A stretch of 63,828 nucleotides of DNA, filler included, from Collodictyon triciliatum (taxonomy: Eukaryota): the NCBI GenBank assembly GCA_043381765.1. It is 10 parts of 10 records of this genome, joined end to end, with 100 filler letters (N's around TTAATTAATTAA, not from the genome) between each part and the next. Parts side by side here need not be neighbours in the genome. Positions count along the whole stretch, not along the records: positions 32,707 to 39,144 come from JBHJMP010004453.1; 9 more parts are not named here. One strand, written 5' to 3'. The position numbers and the translations under genes are program-made. Positions within the stretch are counted from its first letter, which is position 1; every line of letters begins with the position of its first letter. The notes under the pieces were generated by a model, which ran no database searches, was not told where the DNA came from, and saw nothing but the letters and a program-made list of their open reading frames with translations. This document shows, one piece after another, positions 38,233-39,244 of the stretch.

Positions 38233-38788
38233 TGAAAAAAATGAACTCCGAGTTTCATACTTGCACAGCCCGTTAGATTTCCATGTTTGGGTTTAATATT
38301 GGAAGCAACATTCAATTATCATCCCCATACATATGTTTTTCAAAGACGGAAATTAACATAATGATATGTTAATTACTTTATTTTGGATGAACGTCAAAGT
38401 CTAGTATCGATACAAATCTTCCATATTACTTCCGAATCTCTATCCCTTTTAGTGTCATAGTTTTCATTTCTTGCCAACCGATAGACCTGTTTGGCGTCTA
38501 GAATCACAAAAATTTCAAGGTTTTTATATAAACTCGAATACATTATATGTGGTCAATTTTTTTTTTAACATGTAATAAATGAAATAATGCGGTCGCCTTT
38601 GGGTCATCATTTGATTATTCTTGAAACTCGCTGCGCGTTCATATTGAATTATGGTTTCGACTAAACTTAGTATAACCTTCTTTTCCTAGTCAAATTCTCG
38701 AGTTCTCCTCTCACAGCTCGAAACCTAATGGAAAAGATAAAAATGGCGAAGGTTGACCACCCTTCTTTATTAAATAACCTACGCATTT

Positions 38789-38813
38789 CTTTGAATCGAA
38801 TAAAGGAAAAAAA
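38789..38813 (+). mobile_element. Micro-retroposon: 18-nt core + poly(A), perfect 17-nt TSD
   Basis: AAATAACCTACGCATTT (38772-38788) - CTTTGAATCGAATAAAGG A7 - AAATAACCTACGCATTT (38814-38830). Confidence 0.94.
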
Positions 38814-39244
38814 AAATAACCTACGCATTTAATTTCATCGCTTTTTTTTTAAAATTAACTTTGAATGAATGAAGGAAAACAAGATTTAAATTAAATTTCT
38901 CCCGAAACCCAATCAGCAAATTCTTCCGCTTTTTGAAGAGGCTGACAACCATCGTTCCCAAATTAAAGAGAAATACCCACGTGCTGAATGTAAAATGAAA
39001 CAGGACAATGAAATCATACACCTTTATGTCCGAGACGGTTTGATTTTTCTTCTTTTCTTTTTTTCTTTTTTTCTTTTTTTCTTTTTTTCTTTTTTTCTTT
39101 TTTTCTTTTTTTCTTTTTTTCTTTTTTTCTTTTTTTCTTTTTTTNNNNNNNNNNNNNNNNNNNNNNNNNNNNNNNNNNNNNNNNNNNNTTAATTAATTAA
39201 NNNNNNNNNNNNNNNNNNNNNNNNNNNNNNNNNNNNNNNNNNNN

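Follow-up and report, generated by a model that had tools for sequence, protein, structure and literature searches.

Short inserts with a fixed start match the last 18 nucleotides of a LINE in Collodictyon triciliatum

In a 63,828-base stretch of DNA from Collodictyon triciliatum, which was analysed at its full length and is called the window here, very short inserts made up of 18 nucleotides (nt) and an A-rich stretch occur repeatedly at different loci. These inserts have an invariant start, correspond to the terminus of a long interspersed nuclear element (LINE) and bear the scars of target-primed reverse transcription (TPRT). They are an unusual product of LINE-dependent retroposition (fixed-length, 18-nt and tail-only), not a new kind of system. 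In all probability, they arose through TPRT carried out by L1-like LINE machinery, with a fixed limit to the template that is copied; which enzyme copies the RNA, and why copying ends at that base, is what we infer. The window holds 62.6 kb of sequence with a G+C content of about 36% and consists of ten whole, unrelated small contigs of about 6.44 kb each, the last one cut at 4,975, which are joined by N44-TTAATTAATTAA-N44 spacers (e.g. 6444-6543).

The 18-mer CTTTGAATCGAATAAAGG has ten matches in the window at no more than three mismatches (five exact, one with one mismatch and four with two), against a chance expectation of 0.17 and a maximum of two in 100 shuffles. An extra copy with a 1-nt deletion at 38859-38875 (+) lies outside these mismatch-only matches and brings the total to 11, of which two form the 3' ends of longer LINE fragments and nine are short copies (18 nt plus an A-rich stretch). 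The density of the short copies, nine in 62.6 kb, corresponds to about one per 7 kb. An initial annotation of the window had reported three insertions with an identical core and an A-rich tail (38085-38110, 38789-38813 and 62967-62995); we recovered these pristine copies as described and found their perfect target site duplications (TSDs) of 15, 17 and 18 nt, starting at T/AA, again in all three. The decayed copies that it placed at 1196, 2035 and 2377 are real as well, with one or two mismatches each and with TSDs that are imperfect at 1196 and 2035 and ambiguous at 2377. Its estimate of about six units in 64 kb captured the repeated occurrence, while the count itself has to be raised to nine short copies, with those at 8519, 40765 and 38859 added. 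The core is exactly the last 18 nt of the LINE copies (7459-7476 and 8879-8896), as had been proposed, and the same terminus is present in the metagenome contig L001, so that the 18-mer ends 3/3 long LINE copies (7108-7484, 8871-9319 and L001).

An A-tail, a TSD and a T/AA site are the scars of retroposition by LINEs of the apurinic/apyrimidinic endonuclease (APE) type with poly(A) priming, as known from L1 and as likewise held in the review by Ohshima (PMC3747384). In each of the pristine copies the A-rich tail (A8, A7 and A9GA) directly abuts the TSD, and the TSD opens with AA, preceded by a T (junctions TATTT/AATTT, TTATT/AAATA and GAAAT/AAGAT); the exact border between poly(A) and TSD is ambiguous by 1-3 A. 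An A-tail, a TSD length within about 7-20 nt and a TT/AAAA-like nick, all of them features of L1-type TPRT, were thus found together. The variable 5' truncation that is usual for this type was not found, the short copies sharing their first base. The attribution to L1-type TPRT in the initial annotation is borne out by the A-tails, the 15-18-nt TSDs, the T/AA sites and the L1-like relatives of the parent element described below. We also scanned both strands of the window for A-runs with a perfect repeat (at least 11 nt) following within 400 nt, which gave six rows: the three pristine inserts and three rows from one tandem array (45581-45681). Because the scan yielded just three non-tandem rows, the sample holds no young insertion of the poly(A) type besides the pristine inserts.

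The fixed 5' limit is the feature that sets the inserts apart. The first base is the same C in 3/3 pristine copies, no extra bases are present at the junctions, and, as the initial annotation had noted, there is no microhomology to the TACA that lies upstream in the LINE (0/3 pristine junctions share a base). For each short copy, the 30 nt on its 5' side were set against the 30 nt lying before the 18-mer in the LINE, with 5,000 random windows as the null. For eight of the nine short copies p was at least 0.117, i.e. there is no LINE similarity upstream; the lowest of these values belongs to the copy at 2377, whose flank (p=0.117) has no LINE homology. The ninth flank, that of 38789, gave p=0.008, but the match falls inside its own TSD and is repeated after the insert, which identifies it as target DNA and not as LINE. 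That this young insert lies inside an older, longer LINE tail was considered and rejected, since the likeness is confined to the duplicated target and there is no extended homology. Once the insert and one copy of the TSD had been taken out, the 26-nt decayed copy at 38859 was the only part of the locus that aligned to the LINE (score 38, attained by 0/300 shuffles), and the flank match was not recovered. The base before the first C in the nine short copies is T, T, T, T, A, C, C, C and A; it equals the upstream base of the LINE in 2/9 (2035 and 38859), which is about chance. Copies of intermediate size (19-285 nt) were not found in the window. A breakpoint common to three independent clean insertions cannot be explained by ordinary random truncation.

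Table 1. Short inserts, their target site duplications and LINE fragments in the window (substitutions are numbered along the 18-mer)
Feature	Position	Strand	Details
Young short insert 1	38070-38125	-	core 38093-38110, A8 38085-38092; insert 38085-38110, 26 nt
TSD of insert 1	38070-38084 and 38111-38125	-	perfect, 15 nt, AATTTACCAGGTAAT
Young short insert 2	38772-38830	+	core 38789-38806, A7 38807-38813; insert 38789-38813, 25 nt
TSD of insert 2	38772-38788 and 38814-38830	+	perfect, 17 nt, AAATAACCTACGCATTT
Young short insert 3	62949-63013	-	core 62978-62995, tail A9GA 62967-62977; insert 62967-62995, 29 nt
TSD of insert 3	62949-62966 and 62996-63013	-	perfect, 18 nt, AAGATTTATACCCAAATT
Decayed short copy	1196-1213	+	2 mismatches, then A7; 17-nt TSD with 4 mismatches abutting position 1
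Decayed short copy	2035-2052	+	C9T, A/G-rich tail; gapped TSD AAGT(G)TATTAG, about 16-nt match by eye, weak
Decayed short copy	2377-2394	-	T2C, G10A, then A10; 5' limit uncertain
Decayed short copy	8519-8536	-	2 mismatches; no clean A-tail, no TSD found
Decayed short copy	38859-38875	+	C9 deleted, A14G, then AAAAC; 9-nt TSD with 1 mismatch
Decayed short copy	40765-40782	-	C9T, G17T; no TSD found
5'-truncated LINE 3'UTR fragment	7108-7484	+	94.2% over 377 nt to L001; ends in 18-mer 7459-7476 and GA7
LINE fragment with internal deletion	8871-9319	-	ends in 18-mer 8879-8896 and A8; tblastn 59% over 81 aa
LINE ORF2 C-terminal coding fragment with CCHC knuckle	18951-19526	+	93.1% over 576 nt to L001; tblastn 88% over 170 aa

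The decayed copies share a pattern of change. The CpG at positions 9-10 of the 18-mer is altered in 5/6 of them (2035, 2377, 8519, 38859 and 40765), by C>T twice, by G>A and C>A once each and by one deletion, a hint of CpG decay through methylation in this genome or, alternatively, of older subfamilies of the tail. The short copies are also clustered, with three of them within 1.2 kb (1196-2394) and three within 0.8 kb (38093-38875), in both orientations; the decayed copy at 38859 sits 53 nt downstream of young insert 2. Four gaps between neighbouring short copies are below 1 kb (P=0.009 for nine random positions), and with regard to this clustering, older A-tails may themselves supply fresh T/AA nick sites. 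The DNA around the short copies is slightly richer in AT (mean G+C 0.334 vs 0.374, P=0.05).

To characterize the parent LINE, we drew on public contigs and proteins. Metagenome contigs scanned for the 18-mer followed by AAAA gave two loci, one of which, L001 (1,157 bp), is a true relative and a long LINE copy; the other was rejected as a chance match in GC-rich DNA unlike the LINE. No match of the 18-mer was found in viral contigs, and the two matches in prokaryote genome contigs, both from metagenome-assembled genomes of Bacteroidota (Cryomorpha and Fluviicola), were taken for chance, as only prokaryotes make up that collection. A pattern search for the C-terminus of open reading frame (ORF) 2 gave 130 matches in genome contigs and 14 in viral contigs, none of which was confirmed by tblastn. 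A repeat unit of 257 bp, which the two window copies alone had suggested, was rejected, since the matches to L001 show that the repeat measures at least about 1 kb. The open frame of L001 ends with ...SPECTMCDSGDDSIEHTFVKC..., a C-x2-C...H-x4-C knuckle, and is followed by a 3' untranslated region (3'UTR) of about 445 nt.

An exhaustive profile-free protein search gave 14 relatives; an earlier search for longer proteins akin to the LINE ORF had given none. Seven of the 14 are short fragments at 59-98% identity, and four are proteins of 1,226-1,275 aa at 29-38% over the matched stretch. All four long relatives carry an N-terminal Exo_endo_phos domain and RVT_1 near residues 500-760. Among solved structures, one of the four, P0153, is closest to human LINE-1 ORF2p (residues 3-871, E 3.4e-57), while R2 proteins reached only E 1e-23, and the L001 frame aligns to residues 975-1123 of P0153 with 28% identity (E 3e-17). 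As far as the ORF2 C-terminus and these distant relatives can tell, the parent would be an L1-like LINE.

The LINE fragments themselves show some further features. The one at 8871-9319 matches L001 at 88.8% over 286 nt (9151-8871) and at 80.1% over 196 nt (9319-9124); it joins ORF2-coding sequence (L001 161-354) straight to the last 286 nt of the 3'UTR, with about 415 nt deleted. The ORF2 fragment at 18951-19526 is cut off by a contig end, and a (TTTTCT)n-type microsatellite of 358 bp (18323-18680, +) lies about 270 bp upstream of it. Just upstream of the tail (window 7400-7440, +, and also in L001) the 3'UTR is C-rich (CTCTCTCCCATGCGCTCCCATCCCGCCCC), and the cDNA strand of this stretch would have four G-runs that, by eye, are spaced like a G-quadruplex motif.

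We propose that the endonuclease would nick the bottom strand at a T/AA site, upon which the freed T-ended 3' OH would pair with the poly(A) of a LINE-derived RNA. The reverse transcriptase would copy just the last 18 nt (CUUUGAAUCGAAUAAAGG), and the cDNA would then be joined without microhomology to a second nick 15-18 nt away, giving rise to the TSD. Since the copies have no promoter, they would be dead-on-arrival by-products that are remade from LINE transcripts, and not a self-propagating short interspersed nuclear element (SINE). The initial annotation had spoken of a family and of a minimal mobile unit; a recurrent, fixed unit is indeed present, but self-propagation is not shown by copies that look, and probably are, dead on arrival.

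Within this TPRT frame, the fixed limit could be set at either of two stages, between which the initial annotation had not decided either. Quite possibly, the RNA already consisted of 18 nt and poly(A) before it was copied, through an endonucleolytic cut or through 5'-3' decay halted at a protein bound to the 3' end, and the enzyme would then run off the end; this implies a poly(A) RNA starting at CUUUGAAUC. The nucleotide-exact limit, the lack of microhomology and the lack of added bases at the pristine junctions argue for such a pre-shortened RNA. Of four motifs looked for by eye at the cut (TCT-type initiator, splice acceptor, hammerhead cleavage triplet and RNase Z minihelix), none fits.

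Possibly, instead, the reverse transcriptase begins on the long LINE RNA and comes off at a fixed obstacle, for which a small hairpin, perhaps protein-bound and with its base at the first C, would be a candidate. A predicted hairpin (GUAUGGC-AUAACCUC-GCUACAC, -2.8 kcal/mol) closes exactly on the first C, and the terminal AAUAAAGG is predicted to pair, in the long RNA, with CCUUUGU 37 nt upstream (-6.3 kcal/mol, pair probability 0.69-0.97). An 18-nt RNA would be unable to form that terminal structure. The 18-mer with its tail folds at 0 kcal/mol, and no stable hairpin fits inside the 18-mer. It is unlikely that neither of these two accounts applies and that something else within the TPRT frame sets the limit. 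Going further, one could picture a discrete 18-nt RNA module, precisely cut from the 3' end of the L1-like LINE, as the smallest retroposition template yet seen and also as this genome's most active mobile unit; we regard this as doubtful.

Several observations weigh against TPRT with a fixed template limit. The sample is small, with 62.6 kb from one genome and with three clean and six decayed copies. The sizes of the pieces drop steadily from 6,443 to 6,435, which indicates that the pieces were sorted by size, and microsatellites are found at many piece ends (e.g. 1-174, 6350-6443, 32475-32606 and 58568-58753); the source is apparently a short-read assembly that breaks at repeats. As such an assembly breaks at long repeats, long copies are under-sampled in the window, and the ratio of nine short to three long copies therefore overstates the short class. 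A clean TSD is present in only 3/9 short copies and is imperfect, ambiguous or absent in the six decayed ones; p-values from a TSD null model were not useful here, as microsatellites inflated the null. At the copy at 2377, an 11-nt repeat, AAAAAAAATCT, occurs 15 nt upstream and again directly downstream, so that this insert could measure 33 nt. In public data only the long form is seen, and only once (L001), the short form being unconfirmed there. The L1-like nature of the parent would rest on 28-38% identity over the C-terminus, with endonuclease and reverse transcriptase seen only in the relatives, and zf-RVT, found in three of the four long relatives, stays below the Pfam cut-off (22.6-24.6 vs 27.5 bits). 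Rfam gave no match at gathering scores on the window and L001, which also counts against a pre-shortened RNA, as do the results for L001 at E<=10 (only four unrelated weak rows and no ribozyme family) and the absence of tRNA-like genes in the ARAGORN search. As for an obstacle on the long RNA, the predicted folds of the LINE tail are no better than those of shuffles (z +0.78 to -1.27), and in the terminal hairpin region the three long copies do not differ from each other, so that covariation lends no support to that hairpin.

Of the explanations outside this frame, a self-propagating mini-retroposon survives best, although we consider it very unlikely. It would have master loci, transcribed from an external promoter with a start at the first C, it would be polyadenylated through its own AAUAAA, and it would use the LINE enzymes in trans. 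The invariant 5' end fits this scheme, as does the AATAAA inside the unit, 2 nt after which the poly(A) starts, and variants common to decayed copies, T4C (1196 and 8519) and C9T (2035 and 40765), could mark subfamilies. However, 18 nt are too few for an internal promoter, so daughter copies could not serve as sources; with Rfam and ARAGORN, no head resembling tRNA, 7SL or 5S RNA turned up, and the unit is identical to the terminus of every one of the three long LINE copies. The shared variants at positions 9-10, moreover, fall in the CpG that is changed in most decayed copies and maybe reflect parallel decay. We know of no route by which an 18-nt Pol II transcript would be polyadenylated, which counts against the scheme as well.

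It is extremely improbable that the inserts are ordinary LINE copies with random 5' truncation whose breakpoints happen to coincide. LINE copies are usually truncated, at varying positions and to lengths of 100-1,000 bp, according to passages of the Ohshima review (PMC3747384), and extreme cases exist as one-off events; in SERPINC1, for instance, an Alu remnant of 6 nt is followed by 40 A (PMC4859970). The inserts resemble 5'-truncated L1-type insertions in the A-tail, the 15-18-nt TSD, the T/AA nick and the L1-like parent, and in being dead on arrival. They differ in that all three pristine and up to six further, decayed copies break off at one point, 18 nt from the tail; in the sample, this class outnumbers longer copies, and copies of 19-285 nt are missing. 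Even if truncated copies averaged 100 nt, the chance that two more would end at the same base is, by our own arithmetic, about 1 in 10,000.

That no retroposition took place at all is just as hard to credit: the inserts are very short and the assembly is fragmented, as would suit an artefact of assembly or of adapters, or else filler DNA templated during double-strand-break repair, but an artefact would produce neither perfect 15-18-nt duplications of unique target sequence nor decay, and the LINE copy in L001, an independent metagenome contig, ends in this 18-mer too. Fillers from break repair come without long TSDs, poly(A) and T/AA sites. The Class 2 templated sequence insertion polymorphisms (TSIPs), as presented in parts of PMC5110952, likewise lack TSDs and poly(A).

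TPRT by a LINE with a fixed template limit can be set beside several known systems. The inserts are like SINEs with LINE-derived tails in that they are non-coding, share the extreme 3' end of the partner LINE and rely on LINE enzymes. They are unlike SINEs in having an 18-nt unit without a Pol III head (tRNA, 7SL or 5S) or a body (ARAGORN, 0 hits; Rfam, 0 at gathering score); the one SINE trait that they do have, the tail, makes up the whole unit, i.e. the last 18 nt of the partner LINE. The suffix/F pair of Drosophila comprises a unit of 265 bp. Platy-1, with about 100 bp, has been called the shortest primate SINE; it is the shortest SINE that we met in the literature, and the 18-nt unit lies well below it. 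The eel LINE UnaL2 and its SINE are an example of stringent-type tail recognition, in which UnaL2 needs a 3' hairpin, the studied hairpin having 36 nt (PMC1636434, in part). LINE tails of the stringent type have a conserved stem-loop beside the 3' repeat, needed by the reverse transcriptase; the stems predicted here (-2.8 and -6.3 kcal/mol) are no better than those of shuffles, and the three long copies are identical around the terminal hairpin. A LINE that ends in poly(A) can still need its own 3'UTR, as SART1 does according to a passage of the Ohshima review (PMC3747384).

Class 1 TSIPs are fragments of polyadenylated RNA inserted in trans by L1, with AATAAA 10-30 nt before the poly(A), as described in sections of PMC5110952. 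The inserts share with them the short, polyadenylated form, the TSDs at L1 endonuclease sites and the AATAAA inside. In contrast to TSIPs, which are unique one-offs, one sequence recurs here, and its AATAAA ends 2 nt before the tail. In the literature that we searched, no recurrent LINE-tail insert fixed at 18 nt is described, a weak absence with Repbase, Dfam and supplementary files outside the search.

The window contains further coding sequences. An intron-free ORF of 325 aa at 16948-17925 (+) encodes a nucleosome assembly protein (NAP), the best database matches of which reach only 40% identity and are scattered over plants, fungi, rotifers and protists; such low and scattered matches imply that public protein sets cover this organism poorly. 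At 42058-45625 (-), an ORF for a NACHT ATPase (663 aa) is followed by a TPR_12/TPR_10 ORF (495 aa). Their closest proteins, at about 27% identity, have the domains DUF4062, NACHT and TPR, and several of these relatives lie on multi-megabase, bacterial-looking contigs; the gene could be a horizontal acquisition or belong to an ancient STAND family. An ORF of 163 aa at 221-709 (+) has a sub-threshold match to the C-terminal domain of the TnsA endonuclease (E 2e-4, 22.2 vs a cut-off of 23.4 bits), which was all that Pfam searches on ten further ORFs of the window yielded.

If the spike of insert starts at one base holds genome-wide, the inserts would naturally record, to the exact nucleotide, the point at which an L1-like reverse transcriptase stops or at which its RNA is cut. 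They would then bear on the minimal template for TPRT, on the origin of 5' truncation and on whether host RNA decay has a say in what is inserted. Units of 25-30 bp are smaller than those that repeat finders usually report, and inserts of this size may be an overlooked class of insertion polymorphism. The AATAAA in each insert could end transcripts early where it is sense-oriented within a gene. Should the reading as an 18-nt module be true, about one copy per 7 kb would amount to tens of thousands of copies in a genome of 100-200 Mb, and the module would both define the minimal tag accepted by this reverse transcriptase and scatter ready-made AAUAAA poly(A) signals.

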